This document shows positions 1,733-64,000 of a DNA stretch of 64,000 nucleotides, piece by piece; position 1 is the first letter of the stretch, and every line of letters begins with the position of its first letter. The translations under genes were made by a program, and so were the position numbers. Below the pieces are notes generated by a model. That model did no database searches. It was not told where the DNA came from and saw nothing but the letters and a program-made list of their open reading frames with translations. This DNA is from an uncultured virus (IMG/VR IMGVR_UViG_3300022602_000034). Taxonomy: Duplodnaviria; Heunggongvirae; Uroviricota; Caudoviricetes. The stretch lies in IMG/VR virus record IMGVR_UViG_3300022602_000034, one strand, 5' to 3'.

Positions 1733-2038
1733 ATGGATACAAAAACTTTAATCGCAGATGCTAAAGCTCGTTTCAGCTTCAATGCATCTAAAACATACCT
1801 CAATGACAAATATACCAGCAAATTGATTTTTGCTGACCAAAATGGGTTATGGCGCGCTAGTGTAGAACTTATCTCATTGTTGAGTACGTTAGATGATGAT
1901 ATAATAATTCTGTTAGATGACTATAAAAATCCCATCAAAGTAAACAGGCCAACACTGTTAGCAAAAACAAAGAATGTATATACCAAAGTTATGGAAGATT
2001 GGTATAATGAATTTGAAGAATTAAAGAATACCAGATGA
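1733..2038 (+). CDS. hypothetical protein
   Basis: 101-aa ORF; TAAATA motif ends 5 nt before the ATG; ATGA overlap with the next gene. Confidence 0.65.
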   Translation: MDTKTLIADAKARFSFNASKTYLNDKYTSKLIFADQNGLWRASVELISLLSTLDDDIIILLDDYKNPIKVNRPTLLAKTKNVYTKVMEDWYNEFEELKNTR

Positions 2039-3571: not shown

Positions 3572-3842
3572 ATATCGTCTTTATTATGATGACACAGGTA
3601 AAATTGTATGCTATACTACTGAAGACCTTGAGGGAAAGTATGTAGTAATAGACAAAATAACCTATATGTCAGCAAGGCATGACGTGCGGGTGATTGACAA
3701 TAAAGCTGTTGTATTAGCAGCAGGTACGCATATACTAAAACTAATCCCTAAAGATAAAGGCACAATGTGTCACAGAGAAAACATACTGGTAATTGATGAA
3801 ACCGATCCAGTTTATTGGGACTTAACAGTTTATGAAAATTGA
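3564..3842 (+). CDS. hypothetical protein
   Basis: 92-aa ORF overlapping both neighbours in the operon. Confidence 0.55.
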   Translation: MVEYRLYYDDTGKIVCYTTEDLEGKYVVIDKITYMSARHDVRVIDNKAVVLAAGTHILKLIPKDKGTMCHRENILVIDETDPVYWDLTVYEN

Positions 3843-6931: not shown

Positions 6932-6932
6932 T

Positions 6933-7034
6933 ATGCGTAACTTTTTTTCAGAATTGTGGTTTAAGATTGTGCGTGAGTACAAGTACCGTAAAAAACTTAA
7001 AGAGTTGAAGAAGAAAGACCCCTTCATTTATTAA
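6933..7034 (+). CDS. 33-aa peptide ending in KKKDPFIY, upstream of the carbamoyltransferase (not in the ORF track)
   Basis: Translated by hand: MRNFFSELWFKIVREYKYRKKLKELKKKDPFIY*; fills the intergenic gap exactly. Confidence 0.65.
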   Translation: MRNFFSELWFKIVREYKYRKKLKELKKKDPFIY

Positions 7035-7035
7035 T

Positions 7036-13541: not shown

Positions 13542-14555
13542 ATGAAGAAGGTAATTTCAGCCGTATTCGCATTAACAATCGCAATGTCAGCAATGGCAGA
13601 TGTTAGTGTTTTCGGCACAATGGACGCTGGATATTCTAGCACAAAAGCACCAAACGCTGCAACAACAACTACTGGTTATACTAGTGGTGGAATGACAACA
13701 AGTTTTATTGGCTTCAAGGGCAGTGAAGACTTGGGTAATGGTTCTAAAGCAGTTTTTGAATTAAGTAGCTTCTTGAATGACAGCAACGGTGCTGTACAAG
13801 GTGGTTCGACAGTTAACACATTTGCTCGTTCAGCATACGCTGGCTTGCAAGGTAGTTTTGGTGAACTAACATTGGGTCGTCAAACAAACCCAACATTCTT
13901 GCCAGTGATCTTGTTTAACGCTTATGGCGATAGTGGCGCTTATAGCCCATTATGGCACGCTACTTACTTTGGTAACACAGGTAATGCACAAACTCAGTTG
14001 TACAATGATACAGCATGGGACAACAGCGTAAAATACACAACACCAAGCATCGGTGGTGCAACAGTTAGCTTGCAAAATTCTAAAGGTACAAGTGCTCAAA
14101 ACTTCGGTGGCAATGTATTGTACTTCAAGGGTGATTTGGGCTTGACAGCATTCTATCAAAAGACAGGTTACAATAGTTCTGGTAGTTTCCAAACTGACAT
14201 CTACACAGCTAACCCAGGCACACACTCAACAGAGCGTGGTCTAGGCGCAAGCTATGACTTGAAAGTTGCTAAATTGTTTGCTACATTTACAGAAGGCAAA
14301 GATGCTAAATTGAACATGGATGGCAAGACAACACAAGTGTCTGCAAATGTTCCAATGGGTCCAGGTAGCGTATTGGCAGAAGCTGCACATACACGCTATG
14401 ACAGTGGCACAATTACTACATACGATGAATATGCAGTTGGCTATGACTATAACCTAAGCAAGAAAACTGATGTTTATGCAACAGTTGGTCGCACTTATGT
14501 AACAGCACAAACTGCTGGTCAAACATTGGGTGCAGGTCTACGCATTCGTTTCTAA
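13542..14555 (+). CDS. Gram-negative trimeric porin (betaproteobacterial type)
   Basis: Signal peptide; VSVFGTMDAG, GFKGSEDLGNGSKAVFELS, FGELTLGRQ and GYDYNLSKKTDVYA motifs; C-terminal Phe. Confidence 0.9.
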   Translation: MKKVISAVFALTIAMSAMADVSVFGTMDAGYSSTKAPNAATTTTGYTSGGMTTSFIGFKGSEDLGNGSKAVFELSSFLNDSNGAVQGGSTVNTFARSAYAGLQGSFGELTLGRQTNPTFLPVILFNAYGDSGAYSPLWHATYFGNTGNAQTQLYNDTAWDNSVKYTTPSIGGATVSLQNSKGTSAQNFGGNVLYFKGDLGLTAFYQKTGYNSSGSFQTDIYTANPGTHSTERGLGASYDLKVAKLFATFTEGKDAKLNMDGKTTQVSANVPMGPGSVLAEAAHTRYDSGTITTYDEYAVGYDYNLSKKTDVYATVGRTYVTAQTAGQTLGAGLRIRF

Positions 14556-16085: not shown

Positions 16086-16658
16086 ATGTCACAACAATAG
16101 ATTGAGTACGCATGTAAAGATGTAGTCTTCCACTTTAACAAGAAACATTTAGAAGACCAGACCATTCCAATGTGGACCTTGAAATCACATGGAGAAACCT
16201 TTTATGTCAATCATGTGGAATGCAATGTTCCATGGAGTACTAAAGAGACACCTGATAACCCAAGTACAAAAGGTAGTATCAAAGTCAAAGAAGTATTATT
16301 GACGATTGATCCAGATAACAACGCAATATTAACCAAGTTAACTATCTTTGATAAAGTACGACTACGTAATCAAAAGATGGGCATCACCCGTATCATGTTT
16401 GAACCACACACTGAAATTCACAAAGCATTATTGGCAAATGAATTTAAGCACGGACCACTGAAGCGAATCTCAGCACCTTGCACTACTGTATACATTGTGT
16501 GTGATTTATTAGATAAGGCAGAAACTACATTTGCGGCACTAAAGTACGATTTTAGAGTATTACAACCTAATGATAGTTACTATAAACGATATGATGAAGA
16601 TGGAGACCGCATCAGTGCCGACTATAGTGATCCAGACACCCCGTATGAATATAGTTGA
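16086..16658 (+). CDS. hypothetical protein with an in-frame TAG at codon 5
   Basis: AAGGAG SD, then ATG16086 TCA CAA CAA TAG ATT GAG..., in frame with ORF 16170..16658. Confidence 0.55.
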
Positions 16659-16842
16659 ACTTTTTATAAAACGAGAGGATATCTTTGCAGTCTCTAAGTT
16701 ATTATCTGAGAGTGGTGCAAAGTATTATCCTTTTGAAAGAACATGGGTTAATGTTGGCAGCTTTATGAGTACTGGATACAGAATTAGAGTTGACGATCAT
16801 CCTATTATTAGTTTTATTGCATTGAAATATGCTGTCACATGA
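16645..16842 (+). CDS. hypothetical protein (F-x-x-L-K-Y C-terminus)
   Basis: MNIVELF...IISFIALKYAVT. Confidence 0.5.
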   Translation: MNIVELFIKREDIFAVSKLLSESGAKYYPFERTWVNVGSFMSTGYRIRVDDHPIISFIALKYAVT

Positions 16843-16881: not shown

Positions 16882-17655
16882 ATGACACAGAAAACTTATC
16901 GCAGTATCTTTATCAGTGATGTACATTTAGGTACCAAAGACTCACAAGCAGAAAAACTAAACAATTTTCTAAAACACAACTCCTGCGAGACACTTTATCT
17001 GGTAGGAGACATACTAGATGTTTGGAAGATTCAACAAAACAAGTGGCGCTGGAAACAAAGCCATACTAATGTCGTTCGCCGTATTCTTGGGCATAGTAAG
17101 CGTGGCACTCGTGTTATATACATTGCTGGAAATCACGATGAGTTTTTGCGCCCACTAATGCCATACAATATCAACTTTGGTAATGTTGAAGTGGTTAATC
17201 AGATTGAACATATAGGATTAGATGGCAATCATTATCTAGTTGTACATGGTGATTTGTTTGATGGTATTACACGATTAGCGCCGTGGTTAAGTTTTTTAGG
17301 TGACAAAGCATATGATTTCATCCTTGCACTCAATAGCAAATTCAATTGGATTCGCCATAGGCTTGGTTTTGGGTACTGGAGCCTTAGCCGTTTCCTTAAG
17401 CATAAGGTCAAAAAAGCGATTGACTTCATTTTCCAGTTTGAAAGAAACCTTGCAGGATACTGCAAAAAACGAGGATACGATGGTGTAATCTGCGGACATA
17501 TTCATCATGCCGAAATAAAAATGATAGATAATATAGTGTACATGAATGATGGTGACTGGGTAGAAAGTTGCACGGCACTAGTTGAAAAATTCGACGGTAC
17601 ATGGGAAATAGTAACCTGGACGAAAGACAAAGATGACAGTATTAATACTATCTAA
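16882..17655 (+). CDS. LpxH/PlcP-like calcineurin-family metallophosphoesterase
   Basis: SDVHLG, LVGDILD, GNHDE, HGDLFD, CGHIH and NDGDWVES motifs. Confidence 0.88.
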   Translation: MTQKTYRSIFISDVHLGTKDSQAEKLNNFLKHNSCETLYLVGDILDVWKIQQNKWRWKQSHTNVVRRILGHSKRGTRVIYIAGNHDEFLRPLMPYNINFGNVEVVNQIEHIGLDGNHYLVVHGDLFDGITRLAPWLSFLGDKAYDFILALNSKFNWIRHRLGFGYWSLSRFLKHKVKKAIDFIFQFERNLAGYCKKRGYDGVICGHIHHAEIKMIDNIVYMNDGDWVESCTALVEKFDGTWEIVTWTKDKDDSINTI

Positions 17656-18520
17656 ACAAGAACGAAACGAATACGAAACTAACCGATTGGTTGAAAGTTT
17701 CACTAATAAAAATATATCAGCAATGGTTGGTCACCCTGATGACTTTGACATTGTTGTTAGTCAAGACTTAAATCAGTCTATCAAGTATAAAGGTCAAGAC
17801 TTTACAAAGCCTGACTTAGTATTAGTTAGATTGGGCGCAGGTATACTACCTTTTCAGTTGGCAATCATTCGTCAATTTGAAGAAATGGGTGTACCTTGTG
17901 TGAACCCAAGCAAGCCAATCAATGTTGTTAGAGATAAACTAAGAACAGGACAGATACTTGCGGCAAATAAGATTGCTATACCAAAGACTATGATGGTTCG
18001 TTATCCTATTGATGATGGGTTAGTAGAGCATCACATAGGTTTTCCTTGTGTTGTTAAACTTGTTACAGGTAGTTATGGCGAAGGTGTATATCTGTGTGAA
18101 CGCAAGCGTGACTATAAGAAACTAATGGAGTTCATTGATACACTTGGTGCAAAGAAAACAATGATTGTGCAAGAATACATGGGAACTAAGCCAGGTGAAG
18201 ACTTGCGTGTATTTGTAGTAGGTGGCAAAGTGATTGGTGCTATGCGTAGAACAGCACCAGAAGGTGACTTTAGAGCAAACATCACAGGTGGTGGCACAGG
18301 CAGTAACTATGAAGTTACACCAGAGATTGAATATCTTGCTAGGGAAACAGCACGAGTACTTGAACTAAACATTGCCGGTGTTGACTTGTTGTTTAGTGAA
18401 ACAGGGTTTGTAGTATGTGAAGCAAATAGTAACCCTGGCTTTAGTGGGTTTGAAAAGTATTGTCAAGTTGATGTAGCTGACCACATCACAGAATATATTA
18501 GATTTAGATTAAACCAATGA
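17633..18520 (+). CDS. RimK-family ATP-grasp ligase
   Basis: RDKL, GSYGEGV, QEY, DLRVFVVGG, FRANITGGG, GVDLL and EANSNPG motifs. Confidence 0.88.
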   Translation: MTVLILSKQERNEYETNRLVESFTNKNISAMVGHPDDFDIVVSQDLNQSIKYKGQDFTKPDLVLVRLGAGILPFQLAIIRQFEEMGVPCVNPSKPINVVRDKLRTGQILAANKIAIPKTMMVRYPIDDGLVEHHIGFPCVVKLVTGSYGEGVYLCERKRDYKKLMEFIDTLGAKKTMIVQEYMGTKPGEDLRVFVVGGKVIGAMRRTAPEGDFRANITGGGTGSNYEVTPEIEYLARETARVLELNIAGVDLLFSETGFVVCEANSNPGFSGFEKYCQVDVADHITEYIRFRLNQ

Positions 18521-19503
18521 AAACTGTACTCATTGTAACTGATAACTTAAAGGATCAGATTAATGGCGTTGTCACAACATATAAAAACATTGAAGCGTGT
18601 GCGCTTTTGGACGGTTATAACTTTGTATATGTTGATCCCGGGCGGTTCGGCTACATTGATTGCCCTAAGTATAACGAGGTCAAGATTGCCTATCCCCGGA
18701 AGATGGGCCAGATACTTAAGGAGATCAATCCGGATCATATCCACATCGCCACAGAGGGTCCTCTCGGTCTGTACGCTAGAAGGTATCTTTCATTGGTTGG
18801 CAGGAGCTATAATACTGCTTATCATACCCGTTTTCCTGAAGGTATAAAAAAGATATTAGGCGTACCTGAATCTATTACATGGAAGTATGTCAAGTGGTTT
18901 CATGCTAAGTCAAAAAAGATATTGACTACAACTGACACAATGGTTCGTGAATTAAAAGACAAAGGCTTCAAGGGCGAAGTTATACCCTGGACGCGAGGTG
19001 TTGATAGAAGTATATTTCATCCCGGTGATAGTGAACTAAGCAAACGAATGATTTTGGTATGTGTTAGTCGTGTTAGTAAAGAAAAGAACCTAGAACAATT
19101 CTTTGAATTAGATATGCCGGGTGCTCGTAAGATTATGGTAGGTGATGGACCTATGCGTAAAGAATATGAAGCCAGATATTCTGATGTAGAGTTTGTTGGA
19201 TTTAAAACAGGACATGAGTTAGCAGATTATTATAGAATGGCACATGTGTTTGTGTTCCCTAGTGTCTGGGAAACATTTGGTATAGTAATGATTGAAGCAA
19301 TGGCATGCGGTACACCTGTTGCGGCATTTCCTGCACCCGGACCTTTAGATGTAATTGATGAAGGTGTTACCGGTTGTATGCATGATAGCTTAAAATTTGC
19401 AGTAATGAACGCCTCATTATTAGATAGAACTAAAGTACTAGAAGGTAGTCAACGATGGAATTGGGAAAATGCGTGGTTGATTTTTAAAGAAAACCTAGTA
19501 TAA
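18517..19503 (+). CDS. GT4 family glycosyltransferase (Agt/MgtA-like)
   Basis: QINGVVTT, HIATEGPLG, YHTRFPE, RVSKEKN and ETFGIVMIEAMACGTPV motifs. Confidence 0.9.
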   Translation: MKTVLIVTDNLKDQINGVVTTYKNIEACALLDGYNFVYVDPGRFGYIDCPKYNEVKIAYPRKMGQILKEINPDHIHIATEGPLGLYARRYLSLVGRSYNTAYHTRFPEGIKKILGVPESITWKYVKWFHAKSKKILTTTDTMVRELKDKGFKGEVIPWTRGVDRSIFHPGDSELSKRMILVCVSRVSKEKNLEQFFELDMPGARKIMVGDGPMRKEYEARYSDVEFVGFKTGHELADYYRMAHVFVFPSVWETFGIVMIEAMACGTPVAAFPAPGPLDVIDEGVTGCMHDSLKFAVMNASLLDRTKVLEGSQRWNWENAWLIFKENLV

Positions 19504-28012: not shown

Positions 28013-28755
28013 ATGTTAAGAGAACACTTACTCAATCGTCATTTAGACTTAGAACTGCATCGTCCTATGCTAGACGAAGATGAGGGTGTGGCTACATTTT
28101 ACTTGTATAACTTGAGTGGTCAACTAGTTGGCTATCAAAAATATAGACCTGCAGGCGAGAAAAAGCCCAGCAACAATCCCAAGCTAGGTAAGTATTATAC
28201 ATACAGAAAGCAACCCACATTGGCAGTTTGGGGTGTTGAAAGTTTACATTTAACCCCACATGTTGTATTTTTGACAGAGGGCTTGTTTGACGCCGCAAGA
28301 TTGACAAGTCGCGGTGTTAGTGCTTTAGCAGTACTAAGTAACAACCCCAGTCCTGACTTACGCAACTGGCTTACTTGTTTGAATAGAAAAGTTGTTGCAG
28401 TTTGTGACAACGATGCCGCAGGTCGTAAACTAGCAAAGTTTGGCGATGTTGCAGTCTATACAGACNNNNNNNNNNNNNNNNNNNNNNNNNNNNNNNNNNN
28501 NNNNNNNNNNNNNNNNNNNNNNNNNNNNNNNNNNNNNNNNNNNNNNNNNNNNNNNNNNNNNNNNNTAACAACCCCAGTCCTGACTTACGCAACTGGCTTA
28601 CTTGTTTGAATAGAAAAGTTGTTGCAGTTTGTGACAACGATGCCGCAGGTCGTAAACTAGCAAAGTTTGGCGATGTTGCAGTCTATACAGACAAAAAAGA
28701 TTTGGGTGACAGTAGTGAGGAATATGTTACCAATCTATTAAAGGAGTTCGTATGA
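28013..28755 (+). CDS. Toprim-domain primase-like protein (spans the scaffold gap)
   Basis: FLTEGLFDA and VAVCDNDAAG motifs; collapsing the duplicated 127-bp flank gives the end ...VYTDKKDLGDSSEEYVTNLLKEFV*. Confidence 0.7.
28339..28692. other. scaffold gap (100 N) with a 127-bp duplicated flank; assembly artefact
   Basis: 28339-28465 is identical to 28566-28692. Confidence 0.9.
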
Positions 28756-29717: not shown

Positions 29718-30836
29718 ATGGCATCAGCAAGTACCACTAGTGACAATCACACAATCACTGCAATTCAAGTTGCACGTTCACTGAAACAAGCAATGAAAGC
29801 AAAACGCCCCGTGTTCTTGTGGGGCCCTCCCGGTATCGGTAAGAGTGATGTTGTTCAACAACTAGCAATTGAGCTTGGTGGTTCTCCCGAAGCTATGATT
29901 GATTTGCGTATGGCACAAATGGAACCCACAGACATTCGTGGTATCCCTTTCTTCAATCAAGATATCAAAAAGATGGATTGGGCTGAGCCTGTTGATTTGC
30001 CAACTAAAGAGTTTGCAAGTCAATTCAAGACTGTGATTTTGTTCTTGGACGAAATGAACAGTGCGCCTCCTGCTGTACAGGCAGCAGGCTATCAACTTAT
30101 CTTGAACCGTCGTGTTGGTAAGTATAAACTCCCAGATAACGTTGTTATCGTTGCGGCAGGTAATCGTGACAGTGATAAGGGCGTTACATATCGTATGCCA
30201 ATGCCCCTTGCTAATCGTTTCGTTCACTTGGAAATGCGTCCTGATTTCAGTGCATGGCAGTTGTGGGCTGTGAACAACAACATTCACAAAGACGTGGTTG
30301 GTTATCTCTCATTCGCAAAAAATGACATGTACGAATTTGATGCCAAGTCAAGTTCACGTGCATTCGCTACACCTCGTTCATGGTGTTTCGTCAGTGACTT
30401 GTTGAATGACGAAGACAACATTGATACTGATTCATTGTTCAACTTGGTTGCAGGTGCAGTTGGTGATGGTCTTGCTGTGAAGTTCATGGCTCACCGTAAA
30501 GTTGCAGGTAAAATGCCCGCACCAGCAGACATTCTTGAAGGCAAGGTCAAAGACTTGCAGGTCAAAGAAATTTCTGCTATGTACTCATTGACAATTTCAA
30601 TGTGCTATGAATTGAAAGATGCTATTGAAAACAAGAAAGTGTACAACAAAAAGTTCCACGAAATGGCATACAACTTCATTGAATACATGATGAAAAACTT
30701 TGAAACAGAGTTGGTCGTTATGGGTGCTAAGATTGCGTTGAAAACATATCGTTTGCCAATTGAACCAACTCAATTGAAAAACTTTGACGAGTTCCACAAA
30801 AAATACGGCAAATACATTGTTGATGCCGGTAACTGA
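29718..30836 (+). CDS. MoxR-like AAA+ ATPase
   Basis: GPPGIGKS Walker A, LFLDEMN Walker B, AAGNR and PLANRF. Confidence 0.88.
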   Translation: MASASTTSDNHTITAIQVARSLKQAMKAKRPVFLWGPPGIGKSDVVQQLAIELGGSPEAMIDLRMAQMEPTDIRGIPFFNQDIKKMDWAEPVDLPTKEFASQFKTVILFLDEMNSAPPAVQAAGYQLILNRRVGKYKLPDNVVIVAAGNRDSDKGVTYRMPMPLANRFVHLEMRPDFSAWQLWAVNNNIHKDVVGYLSFAKNDMYEFDAKSSSRAFATPRSWCFVSDLLNDEDNIDTDSLFNLVAGAVGDGLAVKFMAHRKVAGKMPAPADILEGKVKDLQVKEISAMYSLTISMCYELKDAIENKKVYNKKFHEMAYNFIEYMMKNFETELVVMGAKIALKTYRLPIEPTQLKNFDEFHKKYGKYIVDAGN

Positions 30837-31130: not shown

Positions 31131-32405
31131 ATGAGCGAAGTTATTGGTAGTAAAAAGAAAACACGCAATTCAAAATTTGATAATCTTTTAGGTCCTACTG
31201 ACCCTAAGATTGACGCAGAAGCACGAGAACTGCTTGTCTCTGCTCGTATTGGTTTGTTATTGCGTCATAGTTTCTTTGGTAACTTGGCTACTCGTTTGAA
31301 ACTTGTCAACGGTGATGAGTGGTTGAGTACAGCGGCTACAGATGGTCAAACATTCTATTACAATAGCCGCTTCATTAAAATGTTGAAAACTAAAGAAGTT
31401 GAGTTCTTGGTAGCACATGAGGTATTGCACGTGGTTTACGATCACATGGGTCGCCGTAATCATCGTGATCCTCAAATCTGGAACATTGCTGATGACTATG
31501 CAGTTAACGCAGACTTGAAGCGACACAAAGTTGGTCAATTCATTACTACTGTGCCTTGCTTGTATGAACAAAAATATGATGGCAAGGCAGCAGAGGAAAT
31601 CTATGATGACTTGATGAAGAATGTTCAGAAGATTAACATTGACTCATTGATTGACCAGTTGCTTGACGACCACATGGATGGTGATGGTGACGAGGGTGAA
31701 GGTGGTGATGGTGAACAAAAAGGCAAAGGTCGTCCTCAACTGTCACAAGAAGAAAAAGACCGTATTCGTCAAGAAGTCAAACAAGCAATTATCAATGCTG
31801 CACAAAGTGCAGAAGCAGGTACATTGCCTCTAGGTGTCGAACGATTGGTTCGTCAAGTTACTGATCCAGTCATGCCTTGGCGTGAACTGATTCAAACAAA
31901 CTTGACTAGCGCAATTCGTACCGACTATTCTTGGATGCGGCCAAGTCGTCGGGGTTGGCATATGGATGCAGTTATGCCAGGCATGACTCCAGGTGAAGAG
32001 ATTGATGTTGTTGTTTCTATTGACATGAGTGGTTCAATTAGTGACAAACAAGCACAAGCATTCTTGGGTGAAATTGCAGGCATGATGAGTAGTTTTGACG
32101 GCTACAAAATTCATGTATTCTGTTTTGACACTAAGTGGTACAATCCACAAGACTTTACTAGCGAGAACATGGATAGTATTGAAGAATACAAACCACAAGG
32201 TGGCGGTGGTACCGACTTTGATGTTATCTTTGACTACTTGAAAGAAATTGGTAATGTACCAAAACGCTTGATTGTTTTCACTGATGGATATCCTTGTGGT
32301 TCATGGGGTGACCCTGACTACTGTGACACAACTTGGATCGTTCACGGTGACCCTGACCCAAAACCCCCATTCGGTCAGTGTGCGGTGTACGATGAACATC
32401 AATGA
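31131..32405 (+). CDS. HExxH metallopeptidase-like plus VWA domain protein (DUF2201-like)
   Basis: TAATDG, AHEVLH, IDMSGSI (MIDAS), GGGGTDF and VFTDGY motifs. Confidence 0.85.
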   Translation: MSEVIGSKKKTRNSKFDNLLGPTDPKIDAEARELLVSARIGLLLRHSFFGNLATRLKLVNGDEWLSTAATDGQTFYYNSRFIKMLKTKEVEFLVAHEVLHVVYDHMGRRNHRDPQIWNIADDYAVNADLKRHKVGQFITTVPCLYEQKYDGKAAEEIYDDLMKNVQKINIDSLIDQLLDDHMDGDGDEGEGGDGEQKGKGRPQLSQEEKDRIRQEVKQAIINAAQSAEAGTLPLGVERLVRQVTDPVMPWRELIQTNLTSAIRTDYSWMRPSRRGWHMDAVMPGMTPGEEIDVVVSIDMSGSISDKQAQAFLGEIAGMMSSFDGYKIHVFCFDTKWYNPQDFTSENMDSIEEYKPQGGGGTDFDVIFDYLKEIGNVPKRLIVFTDGYPCGSWGDPDYCDTTWIVHGDPDPKPPFGQCAVYDEHQ

Positions 32406-32656
32406 TTGAGCGAGAACTTGATCCTTATGTTTGGTTTGGTGAGAGAGAAATCTCTCCCATTCCACGCCATTTTGTAAAAGCATCTACACCAATTTCAAAT
32501 GAGAATCATGTTTGGGTAATTACAAGACTCAAAGGTAGATATGGTGTAGGTGTATCTGAAAACAATAATGAGTTTCTATCTAGCCTAGAGAGCTTTTTTT
32601 ACTTTGAAGATCCGGGCGAAGCAATGATGTACGAATTGCGCTGGTCCGGAAAATAA
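32402..32656 (+). CDS. small protein of the F-x-L-R-W family (dispersed member)
   Basis: C-terminal FYFEDPGEAMMYELRWS. Confidence 0.65.
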   Translation: MIERELDPYVWFGEREISPIPRHFVKASTPISNENHVWVITRLKGRYGVGVSENNNEFLSSLESFFYFEDPGEAMMYELRWSGK

Positions 32657-34871: not shown

Positions 34872-35783
34872 ATGAAGATATATTTACAACTTTTACAAGA
34901 CATATTAGACAATGGTGAAACTAAAGACGACCGCACGGGTGTGGGGACAATTTCAGTATTTGGCAGACAACTTAGATTCAATCTTAAAGAATCTTTTCCT
35001 GCCATTACCACTAAGAAACTTGCTTGGAAGGCTTGTGTCGGTGAATTACTTTGGTTTATTGAGGGAAGCGGTGATGAGCGTAGATTGGCAGAACTCACCC
35101 ACGGTAGTCGTGATGGAACCACAACAATATGGACGCCAAATGCGCTTGCACCATATTGGAAGCATAAAGCGAAGTTTGAGGGCGACCTCGGTCGTGTATA
35201 TGGAGTACAATGGCGTCGCTGGCAAACGCCAGTCTATCATTCACAGGAAACGTTCAAAGACGACTTCGGTAGTCAATACAACAGAGAAGGTCACTTCCAT
35301 GTCAAAGAGACGGATCAACTCAAAAATCTATTACAAGGTCTAATTGAAGATCCTAATGGTCGTAGACATATTATCAGTGCATGGAACCCGGGTGAGTTTG
35401 ACCAAATGGCATTGCCACCATGCCACGTTATGAGTCAGTTTTATGTCAACAAAAATAAAGAATTATCTTGTCATATGTACCAGCGTAGTGTTGATGTTTA
35501 TTTAGGTCTCCCCTTTAATATTGCTAGCTATGCGCTACTCACTCATTTAGTTGCTCAAGTGTGTGATTTGAATGTAGGTGAATTAGTTATTAGTACAGGT
35601 GATACTCACATATATCAGAATCATGTAGAACAAGTAAATGAGCAAATGAGTAGAGAACCTTATCAATTACCTACACTGTGGCTTAACCCCGAAATCAAAG
35701 ATATAAACAATTTCAAGATGGATGATATAAAATTAATTGACTATCAATCACACGGGCAATTAAAGGCTCCAATGGCAGTTTAA
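34872..35783 (+). CDS. thyA: thymidylate synthase
   Basis: DRTGVGT, ELLWF, YGVQWR, MALPPCH, YQRSVD, LPFNIASY and GDTHIY motifs. Confidence 0.97.
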   Translation: MKIYLQLLQDILDNGETKDDRTGVGTISVFGRQLRFNLKESFPAITTKKLAWKACVGELLWFIEGSGDERRLAELTHGSRDGTTTIWTPNALAPYWKHKAKFEGDLGRVYGVQWRRWQTPVYHSQETFKDDFGSQYNREGHFHVKETDQLKNLLQGLIEDPNGRRHIISAWNPGEFDQMALPPCHVMSQFYVNKNKELSCHMYQRSVDVYLGLPFNIASYALLTHLVAQVCDLNVGELVISTGDTHIYQNHVEQVNEQMSREPYQLPTLWLNPEIKDINNFKMDDIKLIDYQSHGQLKAPMAV

Positions 35784-35817
35784 TATTAAAAGGTAGACCA
35801 TAATGATAAATAGATAC

Positions 35818-36390
35818 ATGAAATCAATGTATCATTACCATCATATTATACCTAAACACATGGGAGGGACTAATGATCCTTCTAACTTAGTTAAGCTAAC
35901 AATTGCTGAACACGCTGCGGCTCATAAAACATTATTTGAAGAATATGGGAATAAGTTTGATTATATTGCGTACATGGCATTGTCAAACCAGATAGGTAAA
36001 GAAGAAGCAAATTATTTAAAAATGTTAGGTCCTAAAAATTGGACAGTAGAAGGTAAAGAAACATTGCGAGAAAATGCTAAAAAAAGAAAGGGTGATAAAA
36101 ATCCATTTTATGGAAAATCTCACTCCAAAGAAACCCGTGAGGTTCTTAGAGAGAATCAATTGACTAACAGTTGGATCAAAGGGATTGACCCTTCTTTGTT
36201 GCCCTATACAACATATTATGAGATAATTTATCCAGATGGGTCTATTAAACAAGTAGTAGGGTTAAAGTCTATTGCCGATGAATTCAATGTCAGTATCGCT
36301 AATGTCCATGCTACTATCAGTAGAATGGCTAAAGGTATAATGCCGAGCAAAAGTGTTTTTAAAAATCATCTCATTCGGAAATTAGATTGA
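35818..36390 (+). CDS. HNH homing endonuclease with a NUMOD3 motif
   Basis: HHIIPKHMGGTNDPSNLVKLTIAEHAAAH and NPFYGKSHSKET; start chosen 5 nt after TAAATA. Confidence 0.8.
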   Translation: MKSMYHYHHIIPKHMGGTNDPSNLVKLTIAEHAAAHKTLFEEYGNKFDYIAYMALSNQIGKEEANYLKMLGPKNWTVEGKETLRENAKKRKGDKNPFYGKSHSKETREVLRENQLTNSWIKGIDPSLLPYTTYYEIIYPDGSIKQVVGLKSIADEFNVSIANVHATISRMAKGIMPSKSVFKNHLIRKLD

Positions 36391-36417: not shown

Positions 36418-36681
36418 ATGATTGACTCAGAAGAAGCAAAAACAATAGGATTTGTAGCACATACTATTAAGATGAGTGATGTTGAAGATCCTGATTTATT
36501 TGTGGCACAGCCGATACATGAATGGCAACAAACTGAAGCAGGCAAGTGGATAATGAAAAATTCTAGTCCTAAACCAAGTTGGCATCGTAATCATGACATA
36601 TACAACTATGGATATCAATATCAAATTAGAGCATATCTAACACACAAACAATTAACATATTATAAGTTGAAATACGAATGA
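36418..36681 (+). CDS. hypothetical protein, distant F/Y-x-L-K-Y family member
   Basis: EDPDLFVAQPIHEWQ...LTYYKLKYE. Confidence 0.6.
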   Translation: MIDSEEAKTIGFVAHTIKMSDVEDPDLFVAQPIHEWQQTEAGKWIMKNSSPKPSWHRNHDIYNYGYQYQIRAYLTHKQLTYYKLKYE

Positions 36682-58259: not shown

Positions 58260-58855
58260 TGGCAACTAAGAAACCAGCAACTCCCAAAGACGAAAAATTA
58301 GAAAAGCAAGACTTTGATTTGTTTGAGGCACTTGCGGCGTTGGATCGTAAAGATTACAACTATATGGACAAACTTACAGAAGAACAACAACGTAAGTTTG
58401 TTCCTTACATGATGACTCATTGGATGAGTGCTATTAAAGGTAGCGGTGACGTGCAAGGTTATTATGTAATGAGTACTGAGTATAACGCTAATAAATATTT
58501 GTTCAACGAGCATGTACAAAAGCACCCTAAACTACAATGGATGATGTTGTGTGCCAGTAGCCCTGGTTTAGGGAAACAGTTCCATCAATGGATACCTCAT
58601 CTTTCAAGTAAAGTTGCAACACTGAAAGAATCACCTAAACTGAAGGATATTAGAGAATACTATGCTAAAATATACACTAAAGCAGATGATGATTCTATTA
58701 ATGCAATCAGCGAAGCCTTCGTTGAAGAACATAAAAAGAAGGTGTATCTTGCTAAAAGATTCCCTGATTTGAAACTTGATGACATTGAAACCCTTGCACA
58801 ATTGGTAACTGATGAAGACATTAGATCGCATGAAAGAGAACTTGGCAACGAGTAA
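58259..58855 (+). CDS. possible clamp-loader small subunit (gp62-like)
   Basis: FVPYMMTHWMS...N.Y....HPKLQW pattern and replication-gene context; weak. Confidence 0.45.
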   Translation: MATKKPATPKDEKLEKQDFDLFEALAALDRKDYNYMDKLTEEQQRKFVPYMMTHWMSAIKGSGDVQGYYVMSTEYNANKYLFNEHVQKHPKLQWMMLCASSPGLGKQFHQWIPHLSSKVATLKESPKLKDIREYYAKIYTKADDDSINAISEAFVEEHKKKVYLAKRFPDLKLDDIETLAQLVTDEDIRSHERELGNE

Positions 58856-59528
58856 GTACACCTGTGAATTCTGTAATAAGAATTTTACTAGAGATCGTAC
58901 CTTACTCAGCCATATATGTGAAAGAAAATCTCGTTGGTTAAACAAGGATCATCCTAGCAATAGGATTGGGTTTCAATGCTGGGTTAGGTTTTACGAAAAG
59001 CATAGCATGAGTAAAACTAAGAACAAAACAGTTGAAGAATTCATTCGTAGTCCATATTACATTGCATTCGTTAAGTTTGGTACATATTGTGTTGAAAGTA
59101 AAGTAATTCACATACCTCGTTACGTTGATTGGTTGTTGCAAAATCAAATCAAACTAGATAACTGGAATAATGATAGTGTTTACAACAAATTCTTGTGCGA
59201 GTATTTGCGAGTGGAAGATGCATTTGATGCAATATATCGCAGTGTAGAGTATTGTACTACATTGGCTGAACTAGACGAAATTCAACCCAATGATGTATTT
59301 AGGTATAGTAACCCAAATCGTATATGTCACGGTATATGTTCGGGTAAGATAAGTCCATGGATGTTGTATTGTAGCGACAGCGGTATCCATTTACTAGAGA
59401 CTTTAAATGAGACTCAAGTTAAAATGATTAATGATTATATAAATCCAGAACAATGGGCATTGAAGTTTCACCGTGACTCAAAACTTAAACAACAAATCAG
59501 AGACACCCTCATGTCAGCAGGGTACTAG
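58812..59528 (+). CDS. hypothetical protein with an N-terminal zinc finger
   Basis: YTCEFCNKNF...LLSHIC; the real start may be TTG58842. Confidence 0.65.
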   Translation: MKTLDRMKENLATSKYTCEFCNKNFTRDRTLLSHICERKSRWLNKDHPSNRIGFQCWVRFYEKHSMSKTKNKTVEEFIRSPYYIAFVKFGTYCVESKVIHIPRYVDWLLQNQIKLDNWNNDSVYNKFLCEYLRVEDAFDAIYRSVEYCTTLAELDEIQPNDVFRYSNPNRICHGICSGKISPWMLYCSDSGIHLLETLNETQVKMINDYINPEQWALKFHRDSKLKQQIRDTLMSAGY

Positions 59529-59709
59529 AGTACGCATATTCTGGAAGAATGGTGATACTATTAGTGATTGGAATGAAACCTGTGCTTGGGCAATAGAACA
59601 GTTTGGCTTACCTGGTGATAAGTTTACTACACACCCAACAGAAGATTATATGGACTTCTACTTTCAAAATGAATGTGATGCCATTCATTTTAGTTTGAGG
59701 TGGCTATGA
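59473..59709 (+). CDS. F-x-L-R-W array member 1
   Basis: WAIEQFGLPG...FYFQNECDAIHFSLRWL; start uncertain. Confidence 0.7.
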   Translation: MTQNLNNKSETPSCQQGTRVRIFWKNGDTISDWNETCAWAIEQFGLPGDKFTTHPTEDYMDFYFQNECDAIHFSLRWL

Positions 59710-59966
59710 AACTACTGAGATACAATGCTAGACTTAGTACAGGAAAAGAGAATTTTGAGAACTGGACGAAAGTAAATAGTGTCATTCAAAAAAACATGAC
59801 TCCTGAAATCAGTGAAAGATGGATGAAGGATGGGTATGAAGGACTAGCTGACGAGTGGATATTAGAGTACTACGGAATCAATCGTATCTATCGTGATGAA
59901 AATCAATCTATGACATTTGAATTTACTGAGCAGCAGTGGACTTGGTTTTTGTTGAGGTGGTTATGA
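59706..59966 (+). CDS. array member 2
   Basis: Ends WTWFLLRWL. Confidence 0.7.
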   Translation: MKLLRYNARLSTGKENFENWTKVNSVIQKNMTPEISERWMKDGYEGLADEWILEYYGINRIYRDENQSMTFEFTEQQWTWFLLRWL

Positions 59967-60175
59967 AAGTAATTAAATGGTACGAACCCGCATTCAATCC
60001 AATAATGGAACTGATTGAGCGTGAAGCAAAAGAATCAAACTGTGGCAACAGTGAAGGTATGCGTGTGATTGCCGAATACAAGTACGGTGTTAAGATTAGT
60101 AAGTTTGAAGGTGACTGGCGTAGGATTACTGTCTTAGATGAAAAGAAGTATGCTTGGCTATTGTTAAAGATTTGA
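59963..60175 (+). CDS. array member 3
   Basis: Ends DEKKYAWLLLKI. Confidence 0.65.
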   Translation: MKVIKWYEPAFNPIMELIEREAKESNCGNSEGMRVIAEYKYGVKISKFEGDWRRITVLDEKKYAWLLLKI

Positions 60176-60180
60176 AACCG

Positions 60181-60402
60181 ATGAATAAGATAGATAGTTT
60201 AATGAAACAATGGTTTGAAGAACAAGAACTCAATGATAAGTACTGGCCCTATCAGTATGAACTCAAAGACTGGCAGCATATCTACATGGTTGAAAGATTT
60301 TGCTATAGTAATTTCAAAAGTTCTAACTGGCGTAATCGTGGAAGATACTTTGGATTCAAACGCAAACAAGATTATGAATGGTTCTTGTTGAGGTGGCTAT
60401 AA
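60181..60402 (+). CDS. array member 4
   Basis: Ends FGFKRKQDYEWFLLRWL. Confidence 0.7.
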   Translation: MNKIDSLMKQWFEEQELNDKYWPYQYELKDWQHIYMVERFCYSNFKSSNWRNRGRYFGFKRKQDYEWFLLRWL

Positions 60403-60616
60403 TGTATACAAGTATTTGGTATCATGTTGGTGATAACTGTCCAAAAAAAGACGGTTACTACTTGGCATACAAAAAGTCAAGTTTAGGTGACGATGAAGAA
60501 GGTTATGGAGAGACACAGAAGATTTTTCTATGAATGATGTAGGTGGTCGTGATGTGTTGTTCTTTGCCTTCAAAAACGAAAAAGATTTAACATGGTTTAA
60601 GTTGAGATGGAAATGA
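60402..60616 (+). pseudogene. chimeric remnant: truncated unrelated ORF joined out of frame to the C-terminal half of an array member
   Basis: MYTSIWYHVGDNCPKKDGYYLAY...* (60402-60533); another frame gives ...WRDTEDFSMNDVGGRDVLFFAFKNEKDLTWFKLRWK* (ends 60616). Confidence 0.6.
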
Positions 60617-60915
60617 AAACATTTACTGCAAATTGGACGACAGAAGATAGTTACACTGATACTGATACTATTATGTCTTTGGCTTTCAGTAGAGAAATAC
60701 AAGAAGCAATTAACAATGAAACAATGGTTGATATTCACAAGACACAAGGTTGGACTGTTGTTGCGCTTCCTAGATTTAAAGACATGAGGCATGCGGTTGA
60801 CGTTAATGATTGGTGTGTAGTTAATGTAGGTGCAGGTAAGTGGAACAAGTTTGGTAGTACGTATACGTTTAAAGAACAAAAACATGCCGAGTGGTTCATT
60901 TTACGATGGCTGTGA
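60613..60915 (+). CDS. array member 5 with a capsid-like N-terminal segment
   Basis: TANWTTE...IMSLAFSREIQEAINNE; ends FKEQKHAEWFILRWL. Confidence 0.7.
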   Translation: MKTFTANWTTEDSYTDTDTIMSLAFSREIQEAINNETMVDIHKTQGWTVVALPRFKDMRHAVDVNDWCVVNVGAGKWNKFGSTYTFKEQKHAEWFILRWL

Positions 60916-61115
60916 TTGTTAGCAAATACATTTACGGAGACTACAACTCGGATGAAGCAGTAGAATGGGCTATTAACAATTGTCCTAGTTTTGAAAAGTT
61001 TATGATAGTTGAACTTGAATGGGAAGAAAAACAAGAAAGAGATTGTTGGTTTAGACTTGATGTATACTTTACAGATGAGCGTGATGCAACTTTTTATTCA
61101 CTAAGATGGATATGA
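60912..61115 (+). CDS. array member 6
   Basis: Ends YFTDERDATFYSLRWI. Confidence 0.7.
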   Translation: MIVSKYIYGDYNSDEAVEWAINNCPSFEKFMIVELEWEEKQERDCWFRLDVYFTDERDATFYSLRWI

Positions 61116-61339
61116 CAAGAAAATTAAACAAAAGTGTTTGGCCCTATAATATCTATTTTAAAGATAAAGATAATTGGGATGACAATGATACTACCAACAC
61201 TGAACGACTTGATTGGATTCGTGAAAATCTTAATGAGAACATTCGCAACAGAATCTTTATCCTTGAAGATAGTACCGGTATGATGTATTACTTCAAAGAA
61301 GAAAAAGACTATCAATGGTTCCTATGGAGATGGGTGTGA
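61112..61339 (+). CDS. array member 7
   Basis: Ends YFKEEKDYQWFLWRWV. Confidence 0.7.
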   Translation: MTRKLNKSVWPYNIYFKDKDNWDDNDTTNTERLDWIRENLNENIRNRIFILEDSTGMMYYFKEEKDYQWFLWRWV

Positions 61340-61587
61340 TGGATTTTGAACTTGCTGAAGGTAAAGTATATGGTGCAAAATACTATACGGTAAAACCAGT
61401 AGTGCCTGAAATGTATCATCAAATCCAACAGACATGGCTCGACATGATACAGTGGAATGTTGAGACATTCGGTCCATCACTAAAAGAAGATGTCGTCGAA
61501 CCTGGCGGTCGCTGGTACGCTAACAATGCAAAGTTTTGGTTTAAGAACAAAGCAGACCGAGACTGGTTTTTATTGAGGTGGGAATAA
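61339..61587 (+). CDS. array member 8
   Basis: WNVETFGP...WFKNKADRDWFLLRWE. Confidence 0.7.
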   Translation: MDFELAEGKVYGAKYYTVKPVVPEMYHQIQQTWLDMIQWNVETFGPSLKEDVVEPGGRWYANNAKFWFKNKADRDWFLLRWE

Positions 61588-61832
61588 TGACAGTAGAAGC
61601 AACAAAAGAATTTGTACAGATGATTGACAAGTCTGCTAGGGAATGGCGTGCTAGAAAAACCCAATTAGACGAAAAATATCATCACTTTGATTTGTATGCC
61701 GAAGACTTTTTTGGCATCATAGTTGACTTTCAATTATGTGATAACATGGTAGCAGTGTTTGGTGCAGAAGTAATTGATGAAGACAAATACATTAATTTCT
61801 TATTAACATATGGTGAAGTACATGAAGGCTAA
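61587..61832 (+). CDS. array member 9
   Basis: VIDEDKYINFLLTYG. Confidence 0.65.
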   Translation: MTVEATKEFVQMIDKSAREWRARKTQLDEKYHHFDLYAEDFFGIIVDFQLCDNMVAVFGAEVIDEDKYINFLLTYGEVHEG

Positions 61833-62088
61833 GACACAAGAACTAGGATCATTTACCTATTGGACTGAACATTACTACGGAAGCAAACGCAACATTACCA
61901 CTATCAGTTGGAAGGGTAAGGGTGAAGTTGACACTAATGAAATTCGTAAATGGTGTAAGAAGACATTTGGTAAGAGTGGCTACCGTGAAGACATTGAAGA
62001 TAGTTACTGGGTAGACAATACCGAAGTTGGTGAAATCATGTTGTGCAAAGATGAGTTTCTTACTATGTTTCTATTGAGGTGGACATGA
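61822..62088 (+). CDS. array member 10
   Basis: WCKKTFG...FLTMFLLRWT. Confidence 0.7.
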   Translation: MKAKTQELGSFTYWTEHYYGSKRNITTISWKGKGEVDTNEIRKWCKKTFGKSGYREDIEDSYWVDNTEVGEIMLCKDEFLTMFLLRWT

Positions 62089-62474
62089 CACAATACGATC
62101 CTAACACAGCCGCTAATGTAACGGCTACGGCACAGCAGATACTCATGCCCATGATTAAAAAATTTACACCCACATTACTGGCAATGGCACATAGTATCTT
62201 GGGCGTACAACCTATGACTGGGTCTGTTGGTCAAATCTTTTCCATAGGAGCCAGCTACAAACCACAATCCAAATACAAATTCAGTCGTGCCAAGTGGTAC
62301 GAAGCAGACCATCGCTACGAAGACTACGAGGAAGTTATAGCATGGTGTACTGAACATTTTGGCCCACGACCTCGTTATCCTGATGCATGGACACGCTGGG
62401 CTGATATTCACATTGATAAAATTCGATTCCGTGACGAAAAAGATTATGCTTGGTTTGTATTACGCTGGTCATGA
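62085..62474 (+). CDS. array member 11 with a major-capsid (Gol-region)-like N-terminal segment
   Basis: ILMPMIKKFTPTLLA..HSILGVQPMTGSVGQIFSI; WCTEHFGP; ends FRDEKDYAWFVLRWS. Confidence 0.75.
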   Translation: MTQYDPNTAANVTATAQQILMPMIKKFTPTLLAMAHSILGVQPMTGSVGQIFSIGASYKPQSKYKFSRAKWYEADHRYEDYEEVIAWCTEHFGPRPRYPDAWTRWADIHIDKIRFRDEKDYAWFVLRWS

Positions 62475-62746
62475 AATATAATCTCAATAGAAGCATAGGC
62501 TGGAACTTAGATATGACCAACATGATAATAACACAACGAATTTATAATGGCGCTGATTGTTATAATTGGACTGAATATTTTGCTATCATTCCTAGACGAA
62601 CCGTATCAGGTAAACTAGTATTCTGGCAAAAAGCATATAAGCGTAAGTTCTGGGCAGTGTGGGGTAATGGGTTTCATATGGAACCTGAAGTTGAATACGG
62701 GACACTGTTTGATGTTTTGACACATCCCTGTGTCAACGCCCCATAA
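62471..62746 (+). CDS. hypothetical protein inside the array (not LRW type)
   Basis: WTEYFAIIPRRTVSGKLVFW; ATGA-coupled. Confidence 0.6.
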   Translation: MKYNLNRSIGWNLDMTNMIITQRIYNGADCYNWTEYFAIIPRRTVSGKLVFWQKAYKRKFWAVWGNGFHMEPEVEYGTLFDVLTHPCVNAP

Positions 62747-62778
62747 GGTTTGTGCGTTATTAGTATACAGGAGTAGAT

Positions 62779-62973
62779 ATGACTTATTCTGAATGCCACA
62801 ATAACGCACACTGGACGACCAAAACCGTTGGTCCTTTTTTGAGAAAAATGCATGATAAAGTTGAGAGGTGGTGCGATATCTATTTGGGCAACAATAACTA
62901 TTGCAGCGACGGATACCATTATTCTTTCAAATATAAAAAGCATGCGGAAATGTTTGCTTTAAGATGGCTGTAA
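62779..62973 (+). CDS. array member 12
   Basis: RWCDIYLG...FKYKKHAEMFALRWL. Confidence 0.7.
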   Translation: MTYSECHNNAHWTTKTVGPFLRKMHDKVERWCDIYLGNNNYCSDGYHYSFKYKKHAEMFALRWL

Positions 62974-63206
62974 CTATAAAATTACCAAAAGGATTAGAAC
63001 CAAAACAAGAACAGTGGCTTATTAAGAATATAGGCCCGAGACTCCATTACATGCACAACTCAATAGGTGGACAAGGTTGGATCGCAAAAAAACAAAAGGT
63101 TATAGTTCAGAATGAGGATGTAGGAACTCACAGTTCTGTAGTTCAATGGGATTTAACTTTCCAAGATGACAAGATGGCAACTTGGTTCACAATTATGTTT
63201 TCATAA
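62964..63206 (+). CDS. array member 13
   Basis: WLIKNIGP...FQDDKMATWFTIMFS. Confidence 0.65.
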   Translation: MAVTIKLPKGLEPKQEQWLIKNIGPRLHYMHNSIGGQGWIAKKQKVIVQNEDVGTHSSVVQWDLTFQDDKMATWFTIMFS

Positions 63207-63424
63207 TGTTACAAGTTAGATTGATAGACAAGATGCCCAATGAGATTATGGACATTGTTAGAGAACTTAGACAACAGGGGTATACTCAAGGTACTGATTT
63301 TGATTTTGCGTACAATAAACCCAAATATGATGACTTGAGCCATGATGCAGTGTATAATAGACATACTGTGTTTACATTCTACAAAGAAGAATTAGCAACA
63401 TGGTTTAGTCTAAGGTATGAATAA
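63206..63424 (+). CDS. array member 14
   Basis: Ends FYKEELATWFSLRYE. Confidence 0.7.
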   Translation: MLQVRLIDKMPNEIMDIVRELRQQGYTQGTDFDFAYNKPKYDDLSHDAVYNRHTVFTFYKEELATWFSLRYE

Positions 63425-63705
63425 TGGCAATAGCAGGAATTGGTAATAGTACAGGTACATTTGCACCATTGCAACATGTAACTCAACCTGATCGCACCTC
63501 TTACGAAACAACTAGTCGTGGTCGTATTACTCATAAGATTGATTTGAATTATCAAAAGGTTGATCCAAATGATTATATCAAATGGTGTCGTAGAAATTTA
63601 GGTGAGCGCGGTATTGCTTGGGACTTCTGGTTAGCCGGAAACGTGTTATATATTGAAATCTGGGACGACAAGGCAAAGTTTATTTACGAAATGTGGAAGA
63701 ACTAA
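63424..63705 (+). CDS. array member 15
   Basis: KWCRRNLGERG...WDDKAKFIYEMWKN. Confidence 0.6.
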   Translation: MAIAGIGNSTGTFAPLQHVTQPDRTSYETTSRGRITHKIDLNYQKVDPNDYIKWCRRNLGERGIAWDFWLAGNVLYIEIWDDKAKFIYEMWKN

Positions 63706-64000
63706 ATGGCAGCGGACATTATGATTGACATTGAGAGTTTGTCAACAGACCCTTATTGTGTTATACTTACAATTGGTGCAGTGCGCTTTGATCCAAAAGG
63801 TACTGGCATCGCTGAGAGATTGGAACTCAGACCAACAATCGAAGAACAGACAGACACATACAATAGGATAATTGATGATGATACATTACGTTGGTGGGGT
63901 GAGCAGTCAGCAGCAGCCCAAGAAGAAGCATTGGGGGACAGAGATAGAATCTCATTTAAAGAATGCATGGAAAAGTTATATAGCTTCTGCTGGAATCGCC
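63706..64000 (+). CDS. DEDD 3'-5' exo(ribo)nuclease, partial (runs off the window)
   Basis: MAADIMIDIESLSTDPYCVILTIGAVRFDP...DTLRWW. Confidence 0.8.
   Translation, partial: MAADIMIDIESLSTDPYCVILTIGAVRFDPKGTGIAERLELRPTIEEQTDTYNRIIDDDTLRWWGEQSAAAQEEALGDRDRISFKECMEKLYSFCWNR

Follow-up and report, generated by a model that had tools for sequence, protein, structure and literature searches.

A tandem array of paralogous genes from an undescribed, virus-only domain family in a jumbo phage

In a 64,000-nucleotide stretch of DNA from an uncultured virus of the Caudoviricetes (IMG/VR record IMGVR_UViG_3300022602_000034; hereafter the window), positions 59473–63705 are filled by 17 consecutive open reading frames (ORFs) on the + strand, g1 to g17, encoding proteins of 51–131 amino acids (aa). 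Thirteen of these ORFs encode members of one family of small proteins, defined by a C-terminal domain of approximately 60 aa with the pattern W..FG...F.F..E.D..WF.LRW, and the paralogues within the array are 13–31% identical to one another. The window comes from a freshwater jumbo phage akin to the PA5oct, Atu_ph07, SCTP-2 and Rak2 group. We show here that the family is an undescribed, virus-only domain family, and that its array changes by birth and death of genes and by exchange between phages, with each paralogue kept by purifying selection. Jumbo phages of this kind spend 1–4% of their genome on a family that has no name, structure or function.

Members of the family in the window

Membership was assessed with two kinds of sequence profile. 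Leave-one-out profiles run on 15 candidate members recovered eight at E <= 1.3e-5 and four more at E 0.001–0.01, and missed three (59936, 61578 and 63424; E >= 0.09). An outside profile, built from 144 of 149 representatives from elsewhere after removal of the five that were at least 60% identical to some window ORF, was searched against all 436 six-frame window ORFs of at least 35 aa. It returned 14 ORFs at E <= 3.3e-4, namely 13 in the array and one at 32402–32656, and the next best ORF stood at E 0.088. These members are small proteins, and same-strand arrays of the family also occur in relatives. An earlier reading of this DNA from its letters (the sequence-only reading) had proposed about 15 paralogues and a remnant: 13 members stand, together with a 27-codon remnant at 60534–60616, and of the remaining array ORFs one is doubtful and three are unrelated to the family (Table 1). 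Of the four isolated relatives it had listed, the ORF at 32402 is upheld as a distant member; those at 36418, at 15807 and in the 16645 region (ORF 16570–16842) were rejected (hhalign probability 0.2–0.7%). The ORF at 32402–32656 lies downstream of a pair of genes encoding a MoxR-like AAA ATPase (29718–30836) and a DUF2201 metallopeptidase/VWA protein (31131–32405), with its start overlapping the latter.

Searches of characterized families bear out the view that no function has been described for this family. No Pfam or PHROG family covers the conserved domain in the 17 array ORFs, PADLOC 2.0 and NCBIfam 20 gave no match for 18 proteins (the 17 array ORFs and 32402–32656), and family profile A4 had no match at E <= 1 among PDB sequences. 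Pfam models run against 48 outside members hit only with Gp23, on the N-terminal parts of seven, and PHROGs v4 run against 33 members of the subfamily typified by g12 hit only with the major head protein family, on four. BFVD and the ESM Atlas returned only uncharacterized proteins or unnamed viral clusters of uncultured phages. A literature search, which did not extend to supplements, turned up no description of the family or of the fusions with capsid and NrdA pieces that are reported below.

Searched with a profile, 1.84 billion cluster representatives from metagenomes gave 767 matches at E <= 1e-3; among the 150 matches listed, the proteins measured 44–158 aa and carried the domain at, or close to, their C terminus. 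Fused forms of at least 231 aa were not found in the search, which is weak evidence that they do not occur, and long proteins akin to the N terminus of P0195 were likewise not found in a search for them. The family is missing from cultured phages: in 50,697 phage records, megablast with the array and tblastn with g1 and g9 gave no match; tblastn with g12 matched 2,157 records, and all of the matches listed were confined to its capsid-like N terminus (query residues 2–85), mostly over annotated capsid genes. A pattern scan for the g12 subfamily across 185,579 prokaryote species, with one genome per species, yielded 22 matches, none of which was confirmed. The most widely conserved orthologue group is that of g1, whose orthologues (63–88% identity) made up most of the 125 matches in one search.

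The family is abundant in lakes: near-identical array DNA was present in 24 public sequencing runs from lake, freshwater and freshwater-sediment metagenomes, from at least 21 studies and dated 2012–2018, with half or more of the array words present in 9 of the 24; no RNA run holding array DNA was listed among them.

Turnover and selection

A pattern scan with the g12 subfamily revealed 78 viral loci, some of them duplicates across samples and many cut by contig ends. At least five same-strand members were present in 63 of the 78, with a maximum, by the domain profile, of 22 in 10.9 kb, and five large records, each with one or two arrays, carried 24, 24, 9, 9 and 14 copies. On its upstream side the array is anchored by g0, a conserved C2H2 zinc-finger gene that stands directly 5′ of the array in seven compared loci (L011, L015, L017, L018, L020, L022 and L023) and shares 27–38% identity with genes from PA5oct, Atu_ph07, SCTP-2 and Rak2-like jumbo phages. 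Downstream of this common anchor, the content and order of members vary between relatives; g12, for example, follows g6–g11 in the window and comes first in L017.

The nearest record to the window, a 178-kb IMG/VR contig (G001), has 32% of sampled 31-mers in common with it, and we compared its positions 1–3821 (L011) with window positions 58812–61587. Relative to G001, the window has a 1,032-bp deletion (L011 1082–2113) beside the remnant at 60534–60616; four G001 genes are gone, and the 27-codon remnant is what the deletion left. The comparison also revealed a mosaic at the protein level, with 59% identity for the anchor gene, 79% for g1 and 97–100% for g2–g9. This sharp boundary between g1 and g2 suggests that part of the array was recently exchanged between phages that have otherwise diverged. 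Variation was seen within lake populations as well: a contig from lake run X5 has 18 letters in place of 487 bp covering g2 and g3, and lake run X10 contains the longer, G001-like form. Two further joints in run X10 (59968 to 62436 and 62082 to 62520) had short sides or low likeness and are not relied on. In the comparison with locus L012, which is 100% identical to the window over 18 other ORFs, the segment at 62450–62746 (L012 6372–6668) is only 92% identical, with a synonymous divergence (dS) of 0.27, and looks like a small recombination patch. The proposal of an expanded, cassette-like repertoire is thus supported: the number of copies, the set of genes and their order all differ from one related phage to another, and also within lake populations.

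Selection was estimated by the Nei–Gojobori method on 20 pairs, three of which were uninformative because the sequences were identical or saturated. Of the 16 informative pairs of array genes, 15 had a ratio of nonsynonymous to synonymous divergence (dN/dS) of 0.06–0.27; the exception was g1 against its G001 counterpart (0.60). The array genes are real genes under purifying selection. The term hypervariable, as used in the sequence-only reading, fits the paralogues and not the orthologues: the diversity lies between old paralogues rather than in fast-evolving orthologues.

Predicted fold of the domain

AlphaFold2 predicted a beta-alpha-beta-beta-alpha arrangement for residues 70–131 of g12 (predicted local distance difference test score, pLDDT, > 90) and a beta-beta-alpha-beta-beta-alpha arrangement for the 90-aa g9 (pLDDT 84.9; predicted template modelling score 0.74). 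The two members modelled, on which a shared fold could be checked, are predicted to have the same core, with an extra leading strand in g9. A Foldseek search of the PDB with the two models gave best E values of 0.8 and 0.2, none informative. In an all-against-representatives search with VIA, the best matches were generic alpha/beta sandwiches: an aspartokinase regulatory domain (Z 6.0; root mean square deviation 2.1, 68 residues aligned) and Pol II residues 38–97 (Z 5.2). The family has the order of strands and helices in common with ACT-like, ferredoxin-like and KH-like two-layer sandwiches at the level of fold only; the Z scores are at what the tool calls the "common arrangement" level, and neither a sequence relation to these folds nor a ligand-binding motif was detected. 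LAGLIDADG proteins (I-DmoI and PI-PfuI) matched weakly (Foldseek E 0.4–0.7; VIA Z 4.3), and the models lack a helix before the first hairpin. Since the structural matches are only generic alpha/beta sandwiches, the fold carries no functional information.

The approximately 60-aa domain is the entire protein in most members, and some have an N-terminal extension. A constant docking LRW helix that carries a variable payload, as had been imagined from the letters, is not borne out, as conserved residues are spread over the entire beta-alpha-beta-beta-alpha domain.

Dual-coded gene junctions

Eleven of the 16 internal junctions of the array are start–stop overlaps (five ATGA, two GTGA and four TAATG). 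We examined the codons at the end of the domain in 411 unique members ending in [LIMFV]RW. The Arg codon of LRW was AGG in 299 of 411 (73%), whereas AGG makes up 8% of the Arg codons in the rest of these ORFs, and the preceding Leu codon was TTG in 244 of 411 (59%) versus 23% elsewhere. The next ATG began 5 nt past the Arg codon in 267 of 411 (65%) and 8 nt past it in 68. By these codon and spacing preferences, the string TTG-AGG-TGG-nnATGA serves at once as the end of the last helix, as the Shine–Dalgarno site of the next gene and as its start codon, with the ATG of that gene overlapping the stop. The extreme conservation of LRW is explained in part by this double use of its codons. The motif also places a short DNA repeat at each junction, and the window holds seven copies of this repeat, 27 nt long and 70–100% identical. 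Because each cassette carries the start signal of its downstream neighbour, a gene can be added, dropped or moved at the junctions while the others stay expressed. As a design principle, the dual-coded junction accounts for how a phage can maintain an array of cassettes that is reorderable and always translated.

Core-protein pieces in the g12 subfamily

The N-terminal part of g12 (residues 9–60) matches Pfam Gp23 (PF07068) with 35 bits over model positions 2–59 of 376, is 43% identical to residues 50–97 of the G001 capsid protein (E 3e-11), and is 41% identical to residues 78–131 of T4 gp23 (E 1e-7). We rejected g12 as a full-length Gp23/HK97-fold major capsid protein: no further Gp23 positions match, the rest of the protein is the family domain, which itself does not resemble the capsid protein (hhalign probability 0.1%), and G001 and the complete genome G002 each encode a genuine capsid protein in a 398-aa ORF at another site. 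A complex prediction for g12 with the G001 capsid protein yielded no verdict (score 0.00). The dN/dS of the N-terminal module was 0.12–0.27 in all five orthologue pairs, similar to that of the domain. The capsid proteins of G001 and G002 are nearly identical in this segment, and the g12-type module of G002 has diverged from the capsid protein of its own genome. With the module approximately 40% identical to the phage's own capsid protein and that capsid protein nearly invariant, the module is therefore old and maintained rather than a fresh scar.

The capsid segment is one of two recurrent sources. From 871 family ORFs we collected 181 unique N-terminal extensions of at least 25 aa and compared them with 200 ORFs of at least 120 aa from G001, the window and one helicase of G003. 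The capsid protein was matched by 28 extensions and residues 425–471 of NrdA by 27; each of the other 198 targets had at most one match. This second target is the large subunit of class I ribonucleotide reductase (Pfam, 2.3e-106), and the segment is its N-x-C-x-E active-site loop. At E <= 1e-3, matches fell on capsid residues 40–100 (25), NrdA 425–471 (31), capsid 150–220 (3), capsid 320–350 (2), NrdA elsewhere (1) and the helicase (1), and five rounds of shuffled extension queries gave none. By motif, at least one module was present in 64 of 82 unique g12-subfamily members, in several combinations, compared with 11 of 650 unique members of other subfamilies. The enrichment of core-gene pieces is partly a detection effect, because only conserved pieces are recognizable across divergent phages. 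The occurrence in the g12 subfamily of capsid N-arm and NrdA active-site-loop pieces under purifying selection is new here, and no precedent for such motif pieces on a common scaffold was found in the literature search. A scaffold with a variable payload, as the sequence-only reading had it, is retained for the g12 subfamily (62079–62474 in the window), in which pieces of core proteins form a mosaic N-terminal extension that varies, and not for the family otherwise.

For a third piece, with a P-loop, there is weak support for likeness to the Walker A region of a helicase of the DnaB type: 9 of 12 matches lay at residues 154–195 (best E 9.5e-5), shuffled queries gave approximately six matches per round, and Pfam divDNAB matched at E 0.0046. 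Other assignments of the N-terminal motifs fared less well. Our first reading of them as classic intein or homing sites (TerL Walker A, ribonucleotide reductase loop and PolB motif B) was dropped or weakened; TerL Walker A found no support as a source, and the assignment of one motif to PolB motif B came from two sequences only. A capsid origin of the NLC.EI piece was rejected when alignment to G001 NrdA revealed its derivation from NrdA, and a capsid-like origin of the g6 N terminus was unsupported by standard BLASTP.

Genome G002 contains a second capsid-mimic fusion: at approximately 13.5 kb (L106 1498–1845), a solitary 115-aa ORF beside an epimerase gene combines a capsid N-arm-like start (Pfam Gp23 positions 4–61, E 2.6e-7) with a family-like C terminus. 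In T4 itself (L091 6562–7233), the homing endonuclease gene segD directly follows gene 23, which is of interest for whether homing might account for the capsid-gene fragments; in the window, no endonuclease is located near the array.

Possible roles of the array

Our tentative reading is that the paralogues make up a library of small binding proteins that serve in host take-over or counter-defence. A binding role is suggested by the small size of the proteins, the absence of a catalytic motif, the restriction of the family to viruses and the accessory-region behaviour of the array. The array itself is a translationally coupled, single-strand set of paralogous genes, each encoding essentially one beta-alpha-beta-beta-alpha domain with a Trp/Phe-rich core. 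The products would be small cytoplasmic proteins made together with those of the neighbouring replication and recombination genes, and each paralogue may bind a different host or phage target, which would suit a varied host population. In the g12 subfamily, specificity would come from an N-terminal mosaic whose pieces are copies of the best-conserved stretches of core proteins, namely the N-arm of the capsid protein and the active-site loop of NrdA. Early or middle co-expression is suggested by co-orientation and overlap with the block of genes for single-stranded DNA-binding protein (SSB), UvsX and helicase, and by the fact that promoter- and terminator-like sites are not enriched (19 found versus 21.9 expected).

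Several points weigh against this reading. The orthologues are under purifying and not diversifying selection, which is not the classic signature of an arms race. No likeness to known anti-defence or defence proteins was found, PADLOC covering defence systems and not counter-defence proteins. The generic sandwich fold would equally fit the binding of nucleic acids or small ligands, and the position of the array inside a DNA-metabolism block is compatible with a role in replication or recombination. Finally, the sigma-70 scan does not cover the promoters of this phage group, so that co-transcription is a matter of inference.

An alternative that we consider unlikely is that the proteins are small nucleic-acid-binding factors acting on phage DNA or RNA, such as regulators of replication, recombination or translation, with different paralogues recognizing different sequences or structures. 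The setting of the array, embedded with the SSB, UvsX, helicase and C2H2 genes on one side and a 3′–5′ exonuclease gene on the other, would fit, as would the richness of the domain in Trp and Arg and the fact that its weak structural neighbours (Z 4–6) include sandwiches of the KH-like, ACT-like and LAGLIDADG-like kinds. These structural matches, however, are at background level, the Pfam, NCBIfam and PDB sequence searches revealed no motif or family known to bind nucleic acids, and the conserved aromatic residues, judged by their periodicity in the two models, look like core and not surface positions.

Still less likely, in our view, are capsid- or assembly-linked functions, in which the products would be minor head, internal or decoration proteins and the g12 subfamily would dock through its mimic of the capsid N-arm. 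The conserved copy in g12 of approximately 50 residues from the N terminus of the mature capsid protein, kept by purifying selection, and the second capsid-mimic ORF in G002 speak for such a link. The modules, however, are characteristic of one subfamily, about half of them derive from NrdA and are unrelated to capsids, the array stands among replication genes rather than head genes, and the family domain is not capsid-like.

We give little credence to the idea that the array is selfish or near-neutral filler spreading by recombination at the repeated junction motif, with the N-terminal pieces as recombination scars: the repeated motif, the rapid turnover of content with a pseudogene remnant, and a discovery route that favours conserved core-gene pieces would all agree with it, but both the array genes and the g12 N-terminal module are under purifying selection, reading frames stay intact through all module combinations, the module has long diverged from a nearly invariant capsid protein, and the matches are concentrated on capsid and NrdA against at most one for any other target and none for shuffled queries.

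The library of binding proteins can be narrowed to a bolder version, which we think quite unlikely to be right as it stands: g12-subfamily proteins would each present a "string of conserved motifs" from a small and stable domain, intercepting host or rival-phage factors, and by extension the whole array would be an adaptor library. Old, maintained copies of the capsid N-arm (the equivalent of T4 Gol), of the NrdA active-site loop and probably of the helicase Walker A would be shuffled in different combinations between phages. They would intercept factors that read such motifs in nascent core proteins, for example the abortive-infection systems Lit and CapRel, and the dual-coded junctions would allow plug-and-play swaps of adaptors without loss of expression. 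If the modules are decoys or competitors, they would show which short motifs of core proteins are read by host immunity or by rival phages.

Genomic features and neighbouring genes

The features of the array, its flanks and its isolated member are listed in Table 1. The window also codes for a T4-type large terminase, a gp32-like SSB, UvsX, a helicase, thymidylate synthase and tail-fibre proteins. Further from the array, a phage-encoded full-length Gram-negative porin (13542–14555; Porin_4, E 6.7e-43) stands beside rubrerythrin-like and other auxiliary genes, and auxiliary enzymes are encoded at 4767–8520 and 16882–19503 (radical SAM, carbamoyltransferase, metallophosphoesterase, RimK-like ATP-grasp enzyme and GT4 glycosyltransferase). 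A 195-aa ORF with a NUMOD3 motif at 35803–36390, likely a free-standing homing endonuclease, lies between the thymidylate synthase gene (34872–35783) and the small ORF 36418–36681. A run of 100 N at 28466–28565 is an assembly gap or a masked stretch.

Table 1 Features of the array and its surroundings in the window
Feature	Position	Strand	Assignment	Evidence
g0	58812..59528	+	Conserved C2H2 zinc-finger gene	phrog_11058, E 7.9e-57
g1	59473..59709	+	Family member, 78 aa	Outside profile E 2.2e-14
g2	59700..59966	+	Family member; likely start ATG at 59706 (ATGA overlap)	E 1.6e-4; leave-one-out E 0.0039
g3	59936..60175	+	Doubtful or degenerate member	E 0.28; hhalign probability 17.8% over 16 columns
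g4	60154..60402	+	Family member	E 1.8e-10
g5	60378..60533	+	Non-member; truncated gene, the 5′ part of one for an unrelated protein of 114 aa	86% identical over 44 aa to intact G001 gene (L011:1901-2245)
Remnant	60534..60616	+	27-codon 3′ remnant of a family member	Repeat copies D1-D3; frame-0 translation ends in family C-terminal motif
g6	60607..60915	+	Family member	E 4.4e-13
g7	60891..61115	+	Family member	E 4.5e-7
g8	61106..61339	+	Family member	E 1.1e-11
g9	61315..61587	+	Family member; second structure model	E 3.4e-21
g10	61578..61832	+	Small ORF, membership unsupported	Leave-one-out E 9.7; hhalign probability 1.2%
g11	61810..62088	+	Family member	E 2.8e-12
g12	62079..62474	+	Family member; capsid N-arm-like module (~9-60) and family domain (~66-131)	E 3.6e-22
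g13	62450..62746	+	Unrelated small ORF	hhalign probability 0.07%; orthologues dN/dS 0.16-0.26 (purifying)
g14	62779..62973	+	Family member	E 1.4e-9
g15	62964..63206	+	Divergent family member	E 2.4e-4; leave-one-out E 0.0021
g16	63182..63424	+	Divergent family member	E 3.3e-4; leave-one-out E 0.001
g17	63424..63705	+	Distant family member	E 2.1e-4; hhalign of orthologue alignment versus family: probability 72.6%, E 3.2e-5
Downstream flank	63706..63999	+	Rv2179c-like 3′-5′ exonuclease, runs off the window	Pfam PF16473, E 1.6e-16
Isolated ORF	32402..32656	+	Isolated distant family member	E 7e-5; hhalign probability 87.6% over 26 columns

Comparison with known systems

The hyperplastic regions and internal-protein loci of T4-type phages consist mostly of unrelated ORFs, or of proteins that share an N-terminal capsid-targeting peptide; in the internal proteins this targeting sequence is followed by a cleavage site for the prohead protease. 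Like these loci, the array is made of small, co-oriented accessory genes set between core genes, and its content differs in close relatives. Unlike them, it consists of paralogues built on one folded domain, with conservation in the C-terminal part.

A second point of comparison is phage T6, in which segmental amplification of anti-defence loci driven by SegB is reported to aid escape from host defences (PMC13096335). There too, a large T4-like phage shifts the copy number of small accessory loci. In T6 a homing endonuclease gives rise to the repeats, which are identical and of recent origin, whereas the array copies are ancient and individually conserved, and no endonuclease gene lies in or beside the array in the window.

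The module of g12 invites comparison with Gol of T4 gp23, which triggers the Lit protease via EF-Tu (PMC3014915, PMC9712102). By the first of these accounts, a review, Gol lies in the first quarter of gp23 and is the best-conserved part of that protein, and it is to this quarter that the g12 module aligns; judged from the alignment, the module probably overlaps the 29-residue Gol core. A preprint has Lit and CapRel sensing the capsid protein through short sequence motifs (10.64898/2026.01.04.697583). Unlike Gol in gp23, g12 is a separate small protein and not the capsid protein. More broadly, the kin of the array are the lineage-specific expansions of small domains in jumbo phages.

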